In this document: positions 27,649 to 63,937 of the stretch, one piece after another
Layout: each line of letters begins with the position of its first letter
Numbering within the stretch: position 1 is the stretch's first letter
DNA from: Antedon mediterranea
Taxonomy: Eukaryota; Animalia; Echinodermata
Direction: 5' to 3'
Length of the DNA: 64,000 nucleotides
Assembly: GCF_964355755.1 (NCBI RefSeq)
Contig: NC_092674.1
Location: 6,696,001-6,760,000, forward strand
Translations under genes and position numbers: made by a program
Notes under the pieces: generated by a model
The model's input: only the letters and a program-made list of their open reading frames with translations
Database searches by the model: none
What the model was told of the DNA's origin: nothing

Positions 27649-28804
27649 TTAATAGTTAGTGCGCCCTCTTTGCAAACCTGTGTCGAGAACCGTACTATTC
27701 CGTGTAGAATTACGTAATCGTCCTCATTTTAGACCTACTCTACTGGATTTTTACAGTTATTTTCCATCACATACACCACTTTGAATAGTTTAATAAGTTC
27801 AACATGTTTTTTCAAGAAGTTAATCAAATCAACTGAACCGAAATCTGTATTCCTTCTCCTCCCGGCCTCGGCCGTCCGCTTCCTCTCTCTTTAGTCTTAT
27901 GAGAACAGAATCTTCTGCTAAGGACTACTACAGACAGTACTATTAAAACAATTGAATATATTATAACATCTTTCCAGCACAAAATCAACTGCGATCAATT
28001 TAAATATAAAATGATCAGTATCAAATTCTTCTTTCCAATGACACCATGGATGCCCATGTTGAATGTGGATGGTTTTCGGCCATTTTGAAATCCAAAATGG
28101 CCGCTTTCTGATCCTGTGAACAAATTTTAGGCAACCCTTCCACTTTATGTTTTTGATACCCCAATTTGAAATAAAACATAGTAAAATACAACCACAACGA
28201 AATAACCAAGACATTTATTTTTTGTTTAATGGTTAGTGCGCCATAACTCGTACTATTCCGTAGAATTACGTAATCGTCCATATTTAGACCTTCTCTAATG
28301 GATTTTTACAGTTATTTTCCATCACATACACCACTGAATAGTTTAATAATAACATGTTTATTCAAGAAGTTAAAGAGTTCATCAAATCAACTGAACCGAA
28401 ATCTGTCACATTCGCTTTGCTTCTCCCCTCCTCCCCGCTCCTCTCAGAATCCGACCTCGAAATCTTCTGCTTCTTGCTTTACATAAGGACTACTACAGAG
28501 AGTATTATTATAACAATACCCGTCAGGGTTCCAAACGGAGTTTTTACTTAATATTAGTAAAAACATAAATGTTTTGCCACATATGGCGTTTCATACGTAT
28601 ACTACTTGAGCTTCGTTGTAAACTCCAGATAGATAAAAATCGAAACGTCGACTTAAAAAGACAATAAATATACAGACTTGGGACAAGTCTAAGAAAATAC
28701 ATTTAACTCAATTTAACTTAAGCATAGAAAAAATAATCCTAAAACAGAAACATTTTTAGGTATAAATGTTTTTTTTTTAATGTATAGTTGTTAACGCATT
28801 GTAC

Positions 28805-29142
28805 TCAAACTGCCGTTTCCTCTTCGTTTACTTCAGTATTTTTCTGTAACTTCAAAACGTATCTGACCATGATATCCAATGCGTTGTAGTGTTCGATGCG
28901 TTTAAGCTCGGGCAGGAACGCGTCTAGCCTAAAATCGCAACGCGAATCCCTATACTTCAAAAGGCTTAAAAGAGGATCAGAATCACGTTCAAAATTGTCT
29001 AGCATTCTGCCTCGTACATTTAGATTGCTACCAAGGTGTTTCCAATTCTTTGTTCCGGTTGAACATTTTGGGTTGAGTTCCGTTGAAAGGTTTTGAAGTA
29101 TCGCAATGTTACAATCCATAACAGTCTTATTACACCGCTTGT
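28805..29142 (-). CDS. gene 1 exon 9, death domain
   Basis: LSTELNP...KNWKHLGSNL...FLPELKRIEHYNALDIM; in frame with ORF 28805..29176; ends ETAV*. Confidence 0.9.
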
Positions 29143-32100
29143 CTACCAAATAAAAAATTACGTTTACACATGTCACAATTAGTACATTTTACACTATTAT
29201 TAAACGGATTGTTAAAGGCTGTCGAACTGCACGAGCCGAACACTTTATATACTAAACTCTGTCTACACTAATACAACTAGTTTGACTAAAAAAGTGTGAT
29301 GTGACCAAATACGGTAGTGATACGGTATGATATCATCATGTCCAAATATGGTCACATCACATTTTTCACACATAAAGTTTGATAGTGTGGACAGAGCTTT
29401 ATGCCCAGGCTTTCCTGGCCTATTCTAACTATAATTTGAAGTATTCTATATTCAATATCTCAGATTCAAATGGCAATGTATTGCATGGTTTGTTTCGGTG
29501 AGCCATTTCATGTGCACTTTTGGAAGTTATAAACTACTTTGATTCGATTTGCGCCGGCTGTTTTAGTCATTTCTTACGATTTTCCGTTGTAACTGACCAT
29601 GCCTAAGTATCATTATACAAGGTAGGCGTCAATCAAGAAGGGATTTCATTGTAAATTATTCAGAAATTAGTTTTGATCATACCTTTAGATAAGATTTGTG
29701 TTGCTTTCTCATAGCGATGCCTTAACTCTTCAGGTGGAAATTCTACCTGTAAATCACAACAAATTGAAATAATTATATATAGATGACGTCACAATTCGCG
29801 TATTGGGATACAAGCTATGTATAAGGCTCTGTCTACACTATCAAACTTTATGTAACAAAAAAATGTGATGTTCCCTTATATTGACACGAAGGCTAGTTTG
29901 ATAATGTAGACAAAGCTTTTAAAAAATACACAACATCAATCTATTTTGTGTATTTTTTTATATAAGCATGTTTAGAAGAAGGTCTGTTACTCCATCCATA
30001 GAGTAGGCCCTACGCCATGCTCCACCCATGGAATACTCCATGCTCTATCCAGAAGTAAGTCTTTGCTCCATCAACAGAGTACTCCATTCTCTTTCCATGG
30101 AGTAATCCATACTTCATCCATGGCATAGGCCTACCTCTTGCTCCATCCCACGATTTAAACATCTCATAAGTTCAAATTGAATGCCCACCTCATCTGTTAT
30201 GTAACCACTGCTTGATCGTGATATTCTCGTCTCGTTTTCGACATTGACAGCAGTCACAAAGGGGGACGTCTCTCTGAAGAAATAATGCAATAGGCCTAAT
30301 TATTAAGAAATAAATTGAGGCTATGTTTGGGACAAACAGATACGGTAATTATATATTGGGCTAGGAATGGTCACCGTCGATACGTATCCATTCAATTATT
30401 CATGGTTATACCAAATGTATACTTACGTAGTATCGGTATTCGGACTTTCAGTGTCTATTTGCACGGCGATAGTTTGTATTTGAGTGCCAGGTTCGACATC
30501 CGCTAATAATCCGAAAATCAAAACAATAATATATATAATATATAATTTCATCAATTAGTATACAAACAAAACCAGTAATGTATTGGTTACTAATAATAAA
30601 CATAGTGTTCGGCATCATTCATAAATTGTCATAATTTCATTTTCAACTCATTTTAATGTTTAACTCAATTAATTACGAAGTCTTAATTTTTGGCTTAAAT
30701 TGGTTTTTTTTAAATGAAAAGTAATAACTTTATTATTTCACTAACCTTCTTCATTTGTATGTGTGATTTTCCAAAAGGTTCTTTTTCGAATTCCGCATAG
30801 GGTGGTGGAAAAAATAGCTATCACAAGTATTAATATCATCACCGCCACTACTATACCCATTGTCCACCAATAATGGTTAAGTGGTGTGGGCTCAACTGAT
30901 TCTTTAAAAAAAACAATGATCAATTTGTCAATGATCACAATCTGTTTTGTTCCCTAACAGATCTAACTATTACAATCAGTGGCAATACGAAAGTTGGGGG
31001 GTTGCTATTAAACCATAATGACTCTGGTCCATTTTTCTGCTGACGTTATAAAAAATGTAAACGTTCTAAAAATGAATAACCTTATTATATAGGCCCTGTA
31101 GCGTTTTGGAATAATAAAGAATAAGTTTACTTTAGTTAGTAGTCTAAGTTCCAGACGGAGTTTTGTCTTATTTTTAGTAAAAAGATAAATATGTTTGCAC
31201 ATATGGCGTTTCATATGTATACTACTTAATTGAGCTTGTATTTTCAGACAAAAATCGAAATTCTCACAAGAATATTTCTTACAAAAAACGCTGCTCGCTT
31301 ATTGTTATTGCTAAGGTCAAGTCTGGGGGTCACTTTATCAAGCCTAGATACTTCAAGTATCCTATTACAAACAAAAACTTCAATGGACATTGATAATAAT
31401 TCAATGATTATCTGACAGTGAATTATAGTAATATCATGGGACTCATAAATACCAGAAATGCTTTGGGATTTGTCATTAGACTCTTTTCCCAGCCGTTTTT
31501 TGGATTCAACAGGTGGTACCTATAAATTATAGTCGAGTTTCCATTTTAACAAAAATGTCAAAGTGTAGTACTATACTGCTGCTTGATTTCATCTAATGAA
31601 TGAGTCATCTCGTGTGACGTAGCGGGCCAGAGCAGCAGCGTGAAAAATTAATAAAAAATGACAATGAATACAGACTTGGAGAAAGTCTATTTAGTTAGAT
31701 TCGGACCCACGACTTCGTATTGGATCTTGATGAAAGAGTAATGCTCAATGGAATTTATTTTCCAATTTTATCACATTCACCAATGACTAATGTCTCCACC
31801 TATTCTATCCTTTTTGTTGTTATACATAATAACAGGTAAATCAGGAATGTTTTTGCTTTGAAGCAATTGTAAAAAAAAATCCATCAGTGGCAATTCTCTT
31901 TATTCTGATACTGTACAAATATAATAATGAATAGCCAGATTTGATACCGTTCGTTACAGTTTTGATGACTAATCAAAATAATATATTTATAATATTTATA
32001 GCCTGTGTATGTTTTTGTTTCTGTGCCCTGGATATGTGTTTATTCCGGATGTCATTGTTTGTGGTTTCTCACCTGATCGACCGGACGAATATTTCGTAGT

Positions 32101-34902
32101 GGTGTGATCTTTTCATGCACGTATAGGTATGTAATATGTTTCATGTGACTATTTTATGTACCCTGGAAATGTGTGACGTTGTTTTTTACCTGCGACTACG
32201 CTGAAAGTACATCTTTCAAGTGGTGTGATCTTTTCATACATGATGTTTCATGTGACTATTTTATGTACCCTGGAAATTAAATTCGTGACGTTGTTTGTTA
32301 CCTGCGACTACGCCGGAAGTGCATCTGTCAAGTGGCGTGATATCTTCATAATGACATCAATAATATATTTAGCTTTTGTTTGTGTGTGCCTTAAATATTT
32401 TTATTGCTGGGGTATTTTTGTTGTTTGTTTGCTTACCTGTGACAGAAGCAGGCCTACCCTCTGTCGCATCCTCTGCCGTCGGTAGTGACGTGGTGTCTTC
32501 TTCATGTGACGTCATTGGGCTTTTTGTTGTAACAGTTGTCTCAGGATTGTCTATCGTGTGACAATTAGTACAAGGTTCGCACGGTGATGTGATATTGAAA
32601 CTAACGAACCTGAAAAAGGTTTCAAATAAGAATTACGTGTGCAACTTATTTATTTTTCTTTCTTTTTTTTATATACTGGGTAACCTCTTCAGTCAAAGAC
32701 TGGCCTCAGCGGGCCGAATTATGATCAGTGGCTGTGTGTGTACTCGTCTTGTTTCTATCGGCGGTTCGGTTAATCTGTGACCATTTCTCGAAATAGGGAA
32801 ATAGGGGGAGGGGTTTGTGGGGGGGGGGGGCTGTGAAGTTGTTAATTAAAAGGGGAATCTTCTTCAGTAAACTTAGAATTGGTATAGGCCTATATTGAAA
32901 AGTTATGTTTTAGATTTGTGTAGTCCTAATCGTAAATGATGGTCTTCATCATTGATATAGGGAGAGATAGATACTTACCCTGGTAGACAGTCCCCACACT
33001 TCGCATCATGTGACGTGACAAGTTCGTGTGAACAGCTCTGTACTTCATGCCGATTCAGAGTACTGCATTGTGTACAAGGGGAACATTGACCATGACCATG
33101 TTCCGATTGAAATTCACCGATTTTACAACCCCGACAGTCACCACTTAATCCTTCAATTCCGTACCCACACGGAAATATCTAAACATGAAAGAAATTATAA
33201 TTTTATATAATTAAATTTTATCTGGGCTGAAAATGTGCTTATTTTATTTCGCATACCGATTCAATGCATGGGGTGGATGCACACAATTTGTGTAGGCCCT
33301 GGGTCTCCAAACCCCACCCTACGTTTAAAACTCGCCAAACCTTTTGTGTTTGTTATTGCTTTATCAGTTGTTATGTTGAATCCATGTTGTTCATGAATGT
33401 AAATATTATGTGTGTATTGTTTTGTTTGTGTTTTTTTTTTATCATTGTACTAAGAATGACTTAAATCGAAGCTGAATCTAAATCTGAAATCTGAACTATC
33501 AGACAATATGTATACAATCACCCCGCAACACCCCCTCCCTACTACCCATTATATTGAATCTATTTATTTAGATTTACACCTTTTGTTAAATCGGTGGCAA
33601 ACACAAAGATACATCCTTCAAAATAACAATATTAATAATAATAATAATAATAATATTTATTCGGCAAAAGTTCATAAAGTACATTTTACAATTCATCTTG
33701 CCAGGAGCAAGTAATAGGCATGAGCCCAAACAGAAAACTGCTCTTACTCCATCATTACTTATAAAATACAAAAATAACAAAACTAAGTAGCACAAATTAA
33801 ATATAACATATAAATATAAAAGACAACAAATTTTAAAAATACAATATAAAAGAAATATAATCTATGGGTGTTAAAATGTTTTCTTATAGAATTGATCAAT
33901 CACCTAATTTTCGAAAAAGGTATAAGAGAATATCTTACGCCAGTATATTCAGTTCCAGGCGGACAGACCAGACACCGCATGCATCGTTGCTTCTCTGTAT
34001 CCCATAATACAGACTTGGATTGACAACTTGGATGTAAAGACTTCGCTAATGAATACTACAAAAGAAACAATATTACCATTAAATCAACAACATTTACAAC
34101 AATCGTAAATCCATTCCCTTACGGAAATTTCCATCAACAAATTTTAGTTCTTTTATTTCAGATATTATAAAAGAAAAATGCAATACTGGAGGTATACAAA
34201 GGAAAGTAAGCATTTTACAAAATCGTATACATTCCTAAATATAAAATATACGTCAGTAATAGTTTGGGATTAAAAAATGCTCACCGACCCAGCCGTCGAT
34301 TGTTGTAAGCCATATACCCTAAATAACGGGCTGTCATAGATAATGTATATAGGCCCTACCACACGGTCAAAGCTACAATCCATCTGCACGGTACAATTTG
34401 AATTCTTTTTTTACAATATCATAGTTGATTGGTAAACTAATTAAAACAGTAACATCAGTTTCGTTTCATTGACCAAAGGCTATAATTTACACAGACGAAC
34501 GGTACGGTAACGCTAAGCGGAAACCGCGTAGCTTGTCGGATGTAGAATCTGTATCTATCCTGAGCGGAAACCACCCGTCCGCTCCACGTTGTGTGTAAAT
34601 GGTCATAAGGAATAACATAAAATCTATATTTTTATTACCGTTACCATTCGTCTGTGTAAATTGGCCTTTATGCATACAGTGAGGACAGAGTACAGGATAG
34701 AGAGAATGCAATGTGAGAAGATACAACGAATAAGGAACATACAAGATTTTTGTTTTAATTTAAACAAATAAATAAAATAAATATGTATAAAATAATTAAT
34801 AAAATAAACAAATTTAATATAAATTTGAATTCTACTTACCGGTACAGTATTCATGAAAATCATAGTATATACAAGCATAACAAACATTTTGTCAACATCC
34901 AT
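28805..34902 (-). CDS. TNF receptor superfamily member, EDAR/EDA2R/TNFRSF19-like, with death domain (gene 1; 9 exons, 423 aa)
   Basis: Hand-spliced exons 34902-34840, 34055-33939, 33178-32979, 32609-32437, 30901-30746, 30502-30427, 30273-30189, 29746-29683, 29142-28805. All introns GT-AG; phases 0,0,2,1,1,2,0,1; 1272 nt open through the stop. Signal peptide, CRDs (CMRCLVCPPG; CGYG...CSPCTQCSTLNRHEVQSC...DAKCGDCLPG), TM, death domain. Confidence 0.9.
29683..29746 (-). CDS. gene 1 exon 8, cytoplasmic
   Basis: gatttacag acceptor, gtatga donor, phase 0-1, VEFPPEELRHRYEKATQILSK. Confidence 0.82.
30189..30273 (-). CDS. gene 1 exon 7, cytoplasmic
   Basis: tttcttcag acceptor, gtgggc donor, phase 2-0, ETSPFVTAVNVENETRISRSSSGYITDE. 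Confidence 0.78.
30427..30502 (-). CDS. gene 1 exon 6, cytoplasmic
   Basis: attattag acceptor, gtaagt donor, phase 1-2, ADVEPGTQIQTIAVQIDTESPNTDT. Confidence 0.8.
30746..30901 (-). CDS. gene 1 exon 5, transmembrane segment
   Basis: WWTMGIVVAVMILILVIAIFSTTLCG followed by basic IRKR; phase 1-1, 156 nt. Confidence 0.9.
31267..31648. repeat. about 380-bp interspersed repeat, second copy at 44599-44975
   Basis: caagaatatttcttacaaaaaacgctgctcgc...gcagcagcgtgaaaa, highly similar, same orientation. Confidence 0.9.
32437..32609 (-). CDS. gene 1 exon 4, partial CRD3 plus Ser/Thr-rich stalk
   Basis: ctttttcag acceptor, CAG|gtaagc donor; FVSFNITSPCEPCTNC...ETTVTTKSPMTSHEEDTTSLPT. Confidence 0.88.
32979..33178 (-). 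CDS. gene 1 exon 3, CRD1/2 (IFPCGYG...DAKCGDCLPG)
   Basis: tttctttcatgtttag acceptor, gtaagt donor, 200 nt, TROY/XEDAR-type motifs. Confidence 0.93.
33635..33800 (-). mobile_element. 5'-truncated retroelement tail in gene 1 intron 2
   Basis: reverse complement of 17744-17912. Confidence 0.75.
33939..34055 (-). CDS. gene 1 exon 2, CRD1 part (YSLAK...CQSKSVLWDTEKQRCMRCLVCPPGTEYTG)
   Basis: ttcttttgtag acceptor, gtaaga donor, 117 nt open, TNFR cysteine spacing. Confidence 0.9.
34477..34668. mobile_element. MITE in gene 1 intron 1
   Basis: TIR aatttacacagacgaa/ttcgtctgtgtaaatt. Confidence 0.75.
34840..34902 (-). CDS. gene 1 exon 1, signal peptide MDVDKMFVMLVYTMIFMNTVP
   Basis: ATG at 34902, hydrophobic core, CCG|gtaagt donor, phase 0. 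Confidence 0.75.
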
Positions 34903-48800: not shown

Positions 48801-50662
48801 CCTGCCTTGTATTTTAACCAACTTTATCTTGAATAGGCCTACCACAGCTTAGAATTAGTAGGCCTACTTTAATGAAGAAAAATCACATAAAAGTAACAAT
48901 ACATCCATTAAATTGGTGATTTTACAGACGTTGTTTTTCTCGCATTTCGCACACTCAATGTTCAATATTTTGGTTTCTATGGAACGCCAAAAGAGCAAAA
49001 TTAATTAGAGGGCTAAAAACTCTGTGGAATCCATTTATATTTAACGCATTATTTGGTGAAAATCAAGTACAATTTCAATAGATTTTGTCACTGTCAGTAA
49101 GGAAAAATGTTACTGTTGATAATGTACACGGTTTCGTTAACCTTTTAAAGAATAAAATAGAAAAATTCATCATAATATCCTTAGTAGGATGTCCTAGGTC
49201 TAGACTAGGTAGTGATGTTGATTTAGGATCGATTATTATTCTTTGAAGAAAACAGAACAGTATCAGCAGTAACATATTACAACATTTTTATTGACAAATT
49301 AACAAATATATTGAAATAAAACGTGTTTTTCACCAATAAATGCATGAGAAATTGACGCATTCCACTGAGTTTTAGTCCTCTATTATCGTTGCTCTTTTGG
49401 CGCTCCATAGAAACAAAAATATTGAACATTGAATAATAGTCCAGTCAATCTAGTGATATTTAGAGGTAAACCCACCACAAATTGCAATAGTAACGAAACA
49501 TTGATTTTTTCATTCCAAATGTAGTTTAGAATGACATATTAAAAGTCACCGAAAATTGAAGCATTGGAACACATTATTTTTTACGTAATCTCAACAACTA
49601 TATAGTGATTTTATTCCGTCAATATTTTTGGGGTAGGGGTAACATTTATGCCCATAACTTGTGGGTTTATAATCCAATCTCAATAATCTTGATATCAATG
49701 TGTAGAATATATATTTCTTTCTAAAATGCAATTTAAAAAAACAAAATACAACACTTATTTATATAACTAGAGGTCAAAGGGTTATTGACCTTTTACAAAA
49801 AATCATTTTTTCCTTAAAAAAATGATTAACTGCAATATCGTATGCCATAATTGTGGATGCATTTTAATCAAAATTGTGTTTTTTCTGTACCTATCAATAT
49901 ATAAAATAGGAAACATGATGTTAACTAGAAGAATTTTAAAAGTAATGATGTACTATTCTTATTGAAATTGATTCTTGATCAAATGTAATGTAAACAATTT
50001 TGGGGTAGGGGGTAGCGTTTATGCCTATAATCTATTATTTTATAATCATATCTAAATAGCTTTAGTACCAATGTGTAGAGTATATATATCCTACTAATAT
50101 ACATTAAAAAAACAATTAATACAACAGTTATACGTAACTAGAGGTCAAAAGGTTATTGACCTTTTACAAAAACTCAAATTTTTCCTAACAAAATTATTAA
50201 CATGCAATGTCTTATTCCATAATTGTCGATGCATTTGATGTAACTTGTGTTTTTTCTGTACCTATCGTCATATGAATTAGGAAAAATGATGTTAAGTATT
50301 TTAAATTAATTATGCACTTATAATAAATAAATAAATAATAATAACAATAATAAAAATAATCCTATAATAATGATAAATTGTTATCAACAACAGGTAGTGT
50401 AGTAGTAGGTAACATTATTTTATGCCTGACAATAACATCTAAATAACTACAAATGTGTATAATGTGTATTGCTTACTCTAAAAACTAATTGATACAACAG
50501 TTTTTATGTAACTATAGAGGTCATTGACCTTTTACGTAAAACTAAATCATAGTTATATATATTTTATTTATATTTTGGTAGTATTTGGTGCAAATAATGT
50601 TTTTCCTGTACCTATTGTATCATCATGAAATAGGAAAAATAATGCTAGCTAGAAGAATGATG

Positions 50663-51490
50663 ACTGTCGCAGAGAACAGGACAATAGTCATCTTGTCAAA
50701 TTTGCTGACGACACTGTCTTGCTGTCTCTCCTTCAAAATTCACAGGACGGTCATGGTTCCGCATTAGATTGTTTTATCCAATTTTGTGGAAACTTCTACT
50801 TGGAACCCAATGTGACCAAAACCAAGGACATGATTGTAGATTTTAGGAAGGAGAAAGGACGCAGCCCTCTGGTATCCATCATAAATGACGAACCAGCGAT
50901 ATTGTCCATTCCTTTAAATACCTAGGTACTATATTTGAGGACAATCTCAGCTGGGAATTAAATACAGAGGCATGAATAGTAAAGAAAGGACACCAGAGAC
51001 TTTATATGTTAAGGAAGCTGAACCATTTTAATGTCGATAGATAAAGTAATTCTCAGGCTTTTTTTATAATTCCTTTATTAAGAACGTTTTAACTTTTTTC
51101 CTTTATATGCTGGTTTTTCAGTCTTAGGGTCAAAGAGAGAAACTCACTACAAAGAATTGTTAACTTAAGTTCTAAATTAATAGGTTGTCAACTTTGTAGC
51201 TTATCTTCCTTCTGTGACATGCAAACTCTAGAAAAAAGTAGAGCTATTCTAAAAAATGTTAACCATGCCTTGTTCAGTGATTTCGAGCTTATGCCTCATG
51301 GGTGTCGCTTTCGATGCATGTAGAACAAACCGGAAAAGAAATTCGTTTTTGCCAGTTGCCATCCGACTCTTCTTGAACTTTGACTCTTGTTATATTGTAC
51401 TGTGTATTGTGATATTTTTGTATATTTTGTAGGATCATTTTAATCCAGACCTTTTTATTTGAATTGCTCCGTGTGGGATGATATTGTTAA
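50663..51490 (+). mobile_element. 5'-truncated CR1/Rex1-Babar-type LINE (RT C-terminus, pseudogenised)
   Basis: LVKFAD, NVTKTKDMIVDFRK, FKYLGTIFEDNLSW, QRLYMLRKL with frameshifts. Confidence 0.85.
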
Positions 51491-62068: not shown

Positions 62069-62565
62069 TTATACGCATGTTGTTAATATTTCTCCATGAA
62101 ATGTGCGTTTCTTTGGAATGCATGGAGCATCACAATCATTATTTATATCATCATTATCATCAAAAACATCATCATTATCATCAAAAACATCATCATTATC
62201 ATCATCTTCATCTTTTCCAGTCAACATTTTTTGATGCACCTCATCTTTAACGGTCACATTATCGGCTGCCGCCGTTTGGTCCTCCTTTAACTTAATTATA
62301 GCCCTACAAACCACATTTATGGCCTCCGAATTACCCACTTCTTTTAATGCTGTCAGAAATTTTTCCATAGGTAATTCCAGAGTATGCAGATATTGATGAA
62401 GCCTTACATAAGACCCAAGACTGTTTATTCTAGCTTGATCTGTAATTCCAAGTGCAGACGCCAAATGTCTCCAACATTTAATTGGCGGTTCAGGATCTTT
62501 ACGTGGGTTAAGCAGCTCTGCTAGACGGTCAGTTGTGTTGATATTAAGATCAGTATAGCCAAATC
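62069..62565 (-). CDS. gene 2 last exon, death domain plus acidic tail
   Basis: LAELLNP...IKCWRHLASALGI...FLTALKEVGNSEAINVVCRAI; Asp-rich repeat; ends TTCV*. Confidence 0.9.
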
Positions 62566-63937
62566 CTATTGGTAACAAGAAAACAACAACATAAGATGAT
62601 ATACACATGGAATAATGAATGTTTTTGACTAATACTTCTATCCATTTTTTCATGACCAATTTGTCAAAAGGGAACCTGTTACTTAAATTCCTTTTTGATC
62701 GCGTGACTAACTACAGGTACAGTATTTAGGTAATTTTCCGTATGTTATTTTGACAATTGAGTCTTAACCTTAAACTGTACATACCATTGCAATATTCATA
62801 GGCTTTGTAAAGAAGACTGCTACTATTAGTTTCATCCTCAGGTTTCTAAAAGAAAAAACACAAAACATAAATACTGGATTTTGAAGATGACTGCTACTGG
62901 AAGCCCACCAATGTTTAATCATTCCTGTACTTATTTGCATATATATGTAAATTAAGCAGTAGGAAAACTGTCATTATTAATAAATTAATCATAAATGTTT
63001 TAGTATTTCCTGTACATATTTGTTGCCAGTTAATCGTGTAGTTCTCGCTCTAGAATATAAATAAAATATTTTATTTTGAATAAAGATTAATAAAGAAAGC
63101 AAGAATTTACCTTTTTTGTGCAAGTTCTTGTTACCATCTCAATATTGGCAGTGCAATCTTTATCTGAGATGTAGTTGGTTGAAGACGATGTTTGAGGAGG
63201 AATATAGCTACAAATAATAAAATTAACTCTACTTGGCATCTACATCATTGATAAGGCTAGGTTACAGTTTCAGAAAGACTATTTATCATTAAACATAGCA
63301 CTAAGTTGTACATTACATAATAACATAAAAATCTTCACTTGAAAAAGAGTGCATTCAGAATTACAAATATCTCTCAGGGGCACCTGTGACTACAACTTGT
63401 TTTGTATCATTTATGAAAAACAATATATTATATATAATCAGATTACTTACATCTGAGTTGCATATCTCGGAAGACCTGAAAATGGAATAAAGTTGGATGA
63501 ATTTGACACGAGTAAATCAATTAAATTCATTCTGTAAGAATCTGAGCATCAATCAGACTTAGCTTAGATAAGACTGGAATTGGAAACACACAGAAAATTG
63601 AAAAGGGAACCTTTAATTTGAACAATCTTGCTTTAGGCAAGAAAAAAAAACACACAAAAAATACTTAATAGTACACAATAGAGCAATTTCCTATAATCTA
63701 AACAATTTAGTAAATATTCATTCTACATAGATAGAGCAATTGTCTACTTTGTAAATAGCTTTTAAAGGCATAACAAAAAAAACCTACCACGCATACAACA
63801 ATAGCCTTTTATACCTTTAAAAGCACAAAACAATATGATGACAGTCATGTTTACAACAGATAAAATGAATATCCAGAAGTTGAAAGTTTTGAAATCCATC
63901 TTAACGCAGAAAAAGTAGCCTGGTTTACGGCTGTCAT
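62069..63937 (-). CDS. second EDAR-like death-domain TNF receptor (gene 2; 3' part only, ectodomain exons lie beyond the window)
   Basis: Exons 63937-63788 (TM), 63475-63451, 63207-63111, 62845-62785, 62565-62069 (death domain). GT-AG introns; phases 1,1,2,0,1 match gene 1; frame open throughout. Confidence 0.85.
62785..62845 (-). CDS. gene 2 penultimate exon, 61 nt
   Basis: tttcttttag acceptor, gtatgt donor, phase 0-1, KPEDETNSSSLLYKAYEYCN. Confidence 0.8.
63111..63207 (-). CDS. gene 2 cytoplasmic exon (YIPPQTSSSTNYISDK...)
   Basis: tttgtag acceptor, AAG|gtaaat donor, phase 2-0. Confidence 0.78.
63451..63475 (-). CDS. gene 2 25-nt microexon (GLPRYATQI)
   Basis: ttccattttcag acceptor, gtaagt donor; needed to join phase 1 to phase 2. 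Confidence 0.72.
63788..63937 (-). CDS. gene 2 transmembrane exon
   Basis: long polypyrimidine tract + AG, gtaggt donor; FNFWIFILSVVNMTVIILFCAF then KGIKGYCCMR. Confidence 0.82.

Follow-up and report, generated by a model that had tools for sequence, protein, structure and literature searches.

The tumour necrosis factor (TNF) receptors EDAR, which serves hair and teeth in vertebrates, XEDAR and TROY are defined as one subgroup, EXT, in a 2021 preprint (PITA; bioRxiv 10.1101/2021.12.26.474206), in which the death domain (DD) of EDAR is assumed to have been gained by fusion in early chordates. The preprint also describes a sea-urchin EXT receptor without a DD and, among the EXTs of protostomes, counts 3.4% with one. 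The split of TROY/XEDAR/EDAR from p75NTR has been placed at the base of deuterostomes (PMC2772990); an EDA2R of a sea urchin and an EDAR of amphioxus have been listed (PMC13367198), amphioxus EDARADD-related proteins being added in the corrigendum of that paper (PMC13712372); seven of 13 coral DD-bearing TNF receptors cluster with EDAR (PMC4979521); and XEDAR is said to have a DD (PMC4731439). No echinoderm EXT receptor with a DD was found in the literature covered, outside which some key papers lie. A DD in non-mammalian XEDAR was reportedly described by Pantalacci in 2008 and by Drew in 2007. Here we analyse a stretch of 64,000 nucleotides (nt) from the crinoid Antedon mediterranea (NC_092674.1, positions 6,696,001 to 6,760,000; hereafter the window, to which all coordinates refer) and a gene on its minus strand, at 34902-28805 (gene 1). 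This gene is likely a crinoid EXT receptor whose predicted DD was inherited from the EXT ancestor and which would signal through an EDARADD/MyD88-like adaptor.

Gene 1 has nine exons with 1272 nt of coding sequence for 423 amino acids (aa); all eight introns are GT-AG, and exons 1 to 8 end in phases 0, 0, 2, 1, 1, 2, 0 and 1. The model is identical to P0001, which NCBI lists as 'uncharacterized protein [Antedon mediterranea]', so that the gene was annotated already, without a name. Exon 1 (34840-34902, 63 nt) holds the ATG and, by eye, a likely signal peptide, modelled as a helix at aa 3-25; exons 2 (33939-34055, 117 nt) and 3 (32979-33178, 200 nt) encode the first and second cysteine-rich repeats, and exon 4 (32437-32609, 173 nt) the end of the cysteine-rich region and a Thr/Ser-rich stalk, with low predicted local distance difference test (pLDDT) values over aa 152-193. 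A membrane helix at about aa 197-221 (30866-30792), seen both in the model and in a hydropathy of up to 3.0, lies on exon 5 (30746-30901, 156 nt). It is followed by a disordered cytoplasmic linker on exon 6 (30427-30502, 76 nt), more linker with an ExxP[FL][LIMV] motif at aa 263-268 on exon 7 (30189-30273, 85 nt), a helix preceding the DD (aa 296-311) on exon 8 (29683-29746, 64 nt), and the DD itself (about aa 316-418) on exon 9 (28805-29142, 338 nt to the stop codon). With this single membrane helix and the signal peptide, a single-pass type I topology fits the protein.

Splicing was checked with contigs from four of the five listed runs over 28790-30508, which includes exons 6 to 9 and their three junctions. 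In contigs of run X1, which is RNA by guess only, 29142 is joined to 29683 (exons 9 and 8) and 30273 to 30427 (exons 7 and 6) with zero mismatch, which accounts for two of the three; that of exons 7 and 8 is absent among the X1 pieces listed for this stretch, and one low-depth X1 contig keeps intron 7 sequence. Runs X2 to X4 behave as DNA, intron 8 being crossed continuously where pieces were listed. An earlier reading of the letters alone (the original prediction) had described a clean nine-exon, 423-aa type I receptor and had proposed spliced reads as a check; the identity with P0001, the eight GT-AG introns and the one membrane helix bear out the former, and the two X1 junctions speak for it within the limits of that run. 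Gene 1 is genuine and was read correctly: a spliced crinoid gene that encodes a type I TNF receptor.

An open frame at 31519-31247 and three exon-like repeats of intron 4 were weighed as additional exons and rejected, on the grounds of a wrong entry phase, stop codons or a missing acceptor, and absence from P0001. The repeats, at 32040-32400, are decayed tandem copies, each about 110 base pairs long, similar to the 3' end of the stalk exon 4 and closed by a GT donor-like site. Introns 8 and 7 contain short, very high-copy genomic repeats (29254-29427 and 29776-29949) with ends in common, whose summed contig depth exceeds 100,000 in all four runs and which resemble a small non-autonomous element.

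The ectodomain consists of about two and a half cysteine-rich repeats and carries, on exon 3, the motifs CGYG (aa 64), CxxCxxCxxxNR (aa 92) and CGDCLPG (aa 121). Pfam TNFR_c6 gives 14.4 bits on exon 2, below cut-off, 24 bits on exon 3, and 23.4 bits (E 7.8e-5) for the whole protein, below the cut-off of 29.4; with Foldseek, many TNF receptor folds match this region. An exhaustive protein search gave 85 matches at E 0.001, gene 1 itself included, nearly all of them through the ectodomain, while homolog searches seeded by words, whether started from exon 3 or from the entire protein, returned the gene 1 protein alone. Of vertebrate type, the 85 contain XEDAR-, TROY- and RELT-like proteins, the RELT family being recognised by Pfam RELT; as no names are attached to the matches, the XEDAR-, TROY- and EDA2R-type labels are our own assignment. 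TNFR_16_TM is in none of the Pfam families listed for these vertebrate-type matches, and gene 1 has no TNFR_16_TM match at E 1.

When a profile of a 19-row alignment was compared with solved chains, the EDAR ectodomain came first, with 88 bits in one stretch (p75NTR, 39 and 38 in two), and with a 10-row profile free of the vertebrate-type rows the strongest single stretch was again that of EDAR, at 66 bits. EDAR was also the top Foldseek target by template modelling (TM) score among the rows listed (0.79, root-mean-square deviation (rmsd) 2.2, E-values near ties), and an 'Ectodysplasin A receptor' cluster was the first feature match in the Atlas (0.95). The EXT-type ectodomain that had been predicted is upheld by these comparisons. 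Its motifs had been called typical of TNFRSF19/EDA2R; this holds for CxxCxxC..NR, which alone tells XEDAR/TROY from EDAR/RELT, but not for CGYG and DAxCGxCLPG, which the solved EDAR chain has as well. That chain differs in carrying CxxHxxC instead of CxxCxxC..NR, and the CxxHxxC second repeat of EDAR/RELT is not found in gene 1. Taken together, these comparisons place the gene 1 ectodomain, over its whole length, closest to EDAR/XEDAR/TROY. Gene 1 would be an EXT member; of the marks of a one-to-one orthologue of EDAR it has neither a Death_EDAR match nor the CxxHxxC pattern. One protein among the matches (P0049) has a CxxHxxC ectodomain of EDAR/RELT type together with an extended DD and a weak Death_EDAR match, and may connect RELT with EDAR.

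A DD fold in the C-terminal part of gene 1 is well supported by structure prediction. The AlphaFold model made with the 19-row alignment shows the exon 8 helix (aa 296-311) and then a bundle of helices that reaches about aa 420, with a pLDDT of about 86-95 over aa 301-410. Every one of the best structural matches of the predicted domain is a death domain, namely that of MyD88 (Z 11.4, rmsd 3.4, 102 aligned), FADD (Z 9.6, rmsd 2.2) or p75NTR (9.2), with NF-kB p100 among the top. In the Atlas, a chordate 'EDAR-like' cluster comes closest by structure (TM 0.77). Pfam Death gives 15.1 bits, below the cut-off of 22.6, so that of the two Pfam families proposed as a check, TNFR_c6 and Death, both match and both remain under threshold. 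Matches of the DD exon to the CRISPR-associated APE2256 (E 0.01) were taken as chance. Atlas models of IGFLR1 align over aa 290-413 of P0001, i.e. over the extra helix and the DD (TM 0.73), which suggests, as a lead only, that IGFLR1 may share this extended type of DD. The IGFLR1 ectodomain is different and shorter.

By eye, 19 of the matches were picked as having a similar C-terminal block. A leave-out profile was built from nine of these blocks, probably invertebrate, with P0001, P0002, P0049 and seven vertebrate-type rows excluded against circularity. It gave 45 bits for gene 1 and 42 for a second gene of the window, described below (gene 2). Scores of 15-42 went to five XEDAR-like proteins (P0005, P0007, P0021, P0035 and P0082), and each of the 42 newly listed members of a fish clade reached 15-34; 500 shuffles of each crinoid tail reached a maximum of 5.5 bits. 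Nearly all returns of the profile search for relatives came from that one clade (P0086-P0127), whose members are named TNFRSF 'EDAR-like', '19-like' or '27-like', or are uncharacterized. One of them, P0095, is labelled as a lamprey, Lampetra planeri; it stands amid ray-finned-fish receptors at a similar score and is possibly mislabelled. When 13 DD blocks were compared by profile-profile alignment, they matched the XEDAR-like set at 98.1% over 109 columns and the fish clade at 98.4%, both including the extra helix, and gave nothing with six TROY-like proteins. The XEDAR-like P0035 has a Death_EDAR match of 23.8 bits and the same predicted helix pattern as gene 1, with the MyD88 DD again on top (Z 10.9). 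The DD block of gene 1 is thereby shown to be homologous to that of the XEDAR-like and fish 'EDAR-like' receptors.

These receptors and gene 1 have in common the CxxCxxC..NR ectodomain, the membrane helix, the linker, the extra helix and the DD; DD identity is only about 15-17%. TROY/TNFRSF19 and mammal-type EDA2R are alike in ectodomain motifs, in 35-40% ectodomain identity and, in the TROY-like P0054, in the linker motif, but they have no DD block. The five XEDAR-like proteins are 44-52% identical to the EDA2R-type P0039, which has no DD, and the short EDA2R-type matches likewise showed none here, unlike the statement on XEDAR in PMC4731439. The extended DD is present in XEDAR-like proteins, the fish clade and probably invertebrate relatives, and only TROY-like proteins and mammal-type EDA2R are without it. 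The original prediction had held that vertebrate EDA2R/TROY-type ectodomains lack a DD and that this gene joins such an ectodomain to a DD of the EDAR kind. The DD of five XEDAR-like and 42 of 42 fish-clade receptors speaks against the former, and since these have the same layout, gene 1 does not join parts that are separate in vertebrates. Its further suggestion, that the layout is likely ancestral, gains from the DD block that XEDAR-like, fish and probably invertebrate receptors have in common. With the DD so widespread and missing only in TROY-like proteins and mammal-type EDA2R, an ancestral DD followed by later loss in these two is favoured, so that we infer the EXT layout of gene 1 to be likely ancestral; that the DD itself is ancestral in EXT we hold to be likely.

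Such a DD is easily missed by standard domain scans, as a whole-protein Pfam scan at E 0.05 called Death or Death_EDAR in only two of the 19 DD-bearing proteins (P0035 and P0060). The ExxP[FL][LIMV] linker motif was present in 11 of the 19 linkers against 0.21 expected, the pattern having been picked after inspection of the data. It resembles a dileucine sorting signal.

A number of results weigh against an EXT origin of gene 1 with an inherited DD, many of them involving p75NTR. This receptor is the best solved sequence match of the gene 1 DD and also the best solved chain for the DD profile (35 bits, like the XEDAR-like scores); it has the highest total score with the 10-row ectodomain profile (43 and 39, total 70), and in single-sequence searches 4-1BB and p75NTR (through the DD) ranked over EDAR, whose similarity to gene 1 is as low as 16 bits. 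Gene 1 has no match to Death_EDAR (PF24979), the EDAR DD chain was not among the matches of any PDB search, the DD alone gave generic Atlas feature matches only (0.80-0.81), and a partly p75-like Atlas cluster aligns over the extra helix too (TM 0.76). The original prediction had called the DD 'EDAR-like'; this description is weak for gene 1, whereas its claim of a DD as such stands, given the predicted fold and the leave-out score far above the shuffles. The sequence match of the DD to p75NTR and the p75NTR total with the 10-row profile, together with the TNFRSF16-like Atlas clusters (0.93), would fit a shortened death receptor of the p75NTR lineage with an ectodomain that merely resembles EXT. 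That explanation appears very unlikely: the vertebrate-type matches are XEDAR-, TROY- and RELT-like and have TNFR_16_TM in none of their listed families, and EDAR aligns with the whole ectodomain in one stretch, whereas p75NTR, a receptor of neurotrophins with four cysteine-rich repeats and TNFR_16_TM, matches piecewise only. Gene 1 has nine exons, whereas NGFR has six, in other phases.

Other points on the same side concern the relatives and how they were compared. The 'invertebrate' and 'vertebrate-type' labels of P0002-P0085 are tentative, and the 19 blocks were chosen by eye. Only five of the 13 DD blocks match Death_EDAR, weakly (best E 0.0097), and five the generic Death family; the full DD profile reached at least 15 bits in 21 of the 85 matches, 19 of which were its own training rows, 53 of the 85 being at least 300 aa long. 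Tails can be swapped, as seen in P0009, where a similar ectodomain is paired with another kind of DD, and in P0013 and P0020, with weak DED-like tails on EXT-like ectodomains. The ectodomain tree was a quick version with 80 of 89 rows, nine partial ones being dropped, and the DD tree had 23 rows; as EDAR and p75NTR are among the rows of neither, neither tree proves ancestry. In the ectodomain tree the starred TROY-like clade adjoins DD-bearing XEDAR-like rows and the probably invertebrate rows are not separated. Separate phylogenies of cysteine-rich repeats and DD had been proposed as a check, and the two trees agree in their shallow pairs but leave the deep forks unsettled.

Could the EXT ancestor have had no DD, the crinoid gene, EDAR and others having gained theirs separately, e.g. 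from p75NTR-like genes? The sea-urchin receptor and the protostome count of the 2021 preprint (bioRxiv 10.1101/2021.12.26.474206) would agree with such gains, as would the p75NTR match of the DD and the exchanged domain of P0009. The preprint's count, however, was built on NCBI/Pfam domain calls, of the kind that recognised two of 19 extended DDs here, and separate gains sit poorly both with a single colinear block, extra helix included, common across groups and with a linker motif that even the TROY-like protein shares. We thus regard independent gain as distinctly improbable, and the inherited DD as the better account.

The exon layout was also compared with that of EDAR. The EDAR boundaries c.174, c.356, c.803, c.963 and c.1024 would have phases 0, 2, 2, 0 and 1, with an exon 11 of 61 nt, in line with the original prediction. 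On these positions, crinoid introns 2 (eight residues past Cys52) and 3 (in the Gly of CLPG) would coincide with those of EDAR, and the exon with the helix before the DD presumably lies at the same place as well. Around its membrane helix, EDAR is split into a larger number of exons. In published data, EDAR intron 8, which is outside the crinoid comparison, is given by c.730-2 (PMC5353988), the first coding intron follows c.51 (c.52-2) in phase 0 (PMC6892193), as in gene 1 and as the original prediction had stated, the DD is in exon 12, the last exon (PMC7963410), again as in the crinoid, and splice junctions of zebrafish edar lie just past the membrane helix (PMC2542418). Apart from the first intron and the DD in the last exon, a match of gene 1 to the introns of EDAR is tentative.

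Gene 2, a partial paralog at 62069-63937, lies 27 kb upstream of gene 1 on the same minus strand, with its ectodomain beyond the window. Its model has GT-AG introns with phases 1, 2, 0 and 1 after the membrane helix, which is on the exon at 63937-63788; the exons at 63475-63451 and 63207-63111 follow, then a penultimate exon of 61 nt (62845-62785) and the last exon (62565-62069), with the DD and an acidic, Asp/Asn-rich tail. The sizes of 64 and 61 nt given in the original prediction for the penultimate exons of the two genes agree with the models. The DDs of the two genes share 25% identity (E 4e-6); that of gene 2, with 15.6 bits for Death_EDAR (cut-off 27), is the more EDAR-like.

Family knowledge, from which we infer the ligand, adaptor and output of gene 1, suggests that a trimeric EDA-like TNF ligand would be bound via the cysteine-rich repeats and would cluster the receptor, that the DD would then recruit a death-domain adaptor (EDARADD/MyD88-like), as EDAR does, and that this adaptor would link to TRAF6 and on to NF-kB/JNK. 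All five XEDAR-like proteins have a PVEC[TS]E motif, which we take to be TRAF-binding and which the crinoid protein is without. In P0001 none of the TRAF motifs PxQx[ST], PxQxxD and PxExx[DEFWY] was found, and what the tail does contain are minor matches to [PSAT]x[QE]E; because the tail has no major TRAF-binding motif, the route by a DD adaptor is likely. An EXT receptor with an inherited DD might instead use an adaptor of FADD/TRADD type and trigger apoptosis by caspase-8, in place of an EDARADD-type adaptor and NF-kB. FADD is indeed among the structural matches of the DD (Z and rmsd as given above), and invertebrate DD-bearing TNF receptors have been tied to apoptosis (PMC4979521), but the top structural matches are the DDs of MyD88 and NF-kB p100 and EDARADD has been called MyD88-like (PMC4731439). 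A common fold indicates no function, either way, and we consider this apoptotic course unlikely, if the most serious of the alternatives, and the adaptor of EDARADD/MyD88 type the better candidate.

Elsewhere in the window, a reverse-transcriptase fragment at 50653-50925 on the plus strand (RVT_1, E 0.008) is probably the relic of a long interspersed nuclear element, and seventeen other open frames gave no informative Pfam match.

Gene 1 is a new member of the known EXT subgroup, with a layout that was kept in vertebrates too, and it bears on the origin of the ectodysplasin pathway. The idea of an ancestral DD is not wholly new, given the coral DD-bearing receptors that cluster with EDAR (PMC4979521), and it runs against the gain in chordates that the 2021 preprint assumed for EDAR. 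Given an echinoderm EXT receptor and a paralog with a homologous extended DD, apparently in the same exon layout, a history with loss in TROY and mammalian EDA2R would be the simpler one, and Pfam-based counts miss this type of DD. On balance we lean towards a wider scenario in which the EXT ancestor had an extended DD before the split of echinoderms and chordates, perhaps before the bilaterians, its extra helix on an exon of its own of 61-64 nt that came after a linker motif of ExxPL type. This DD would have passed to EDAR, to non-mammalian XEDAR, to the EDAR-like clade of fishes and possibly to IGFLR1, TROY and mammalian EDA2R would have lost it, domain scans would undercount DD-bearing EXTs, and EDAR-style adaptor signalling would be older than the skin appendages of vertebrates.

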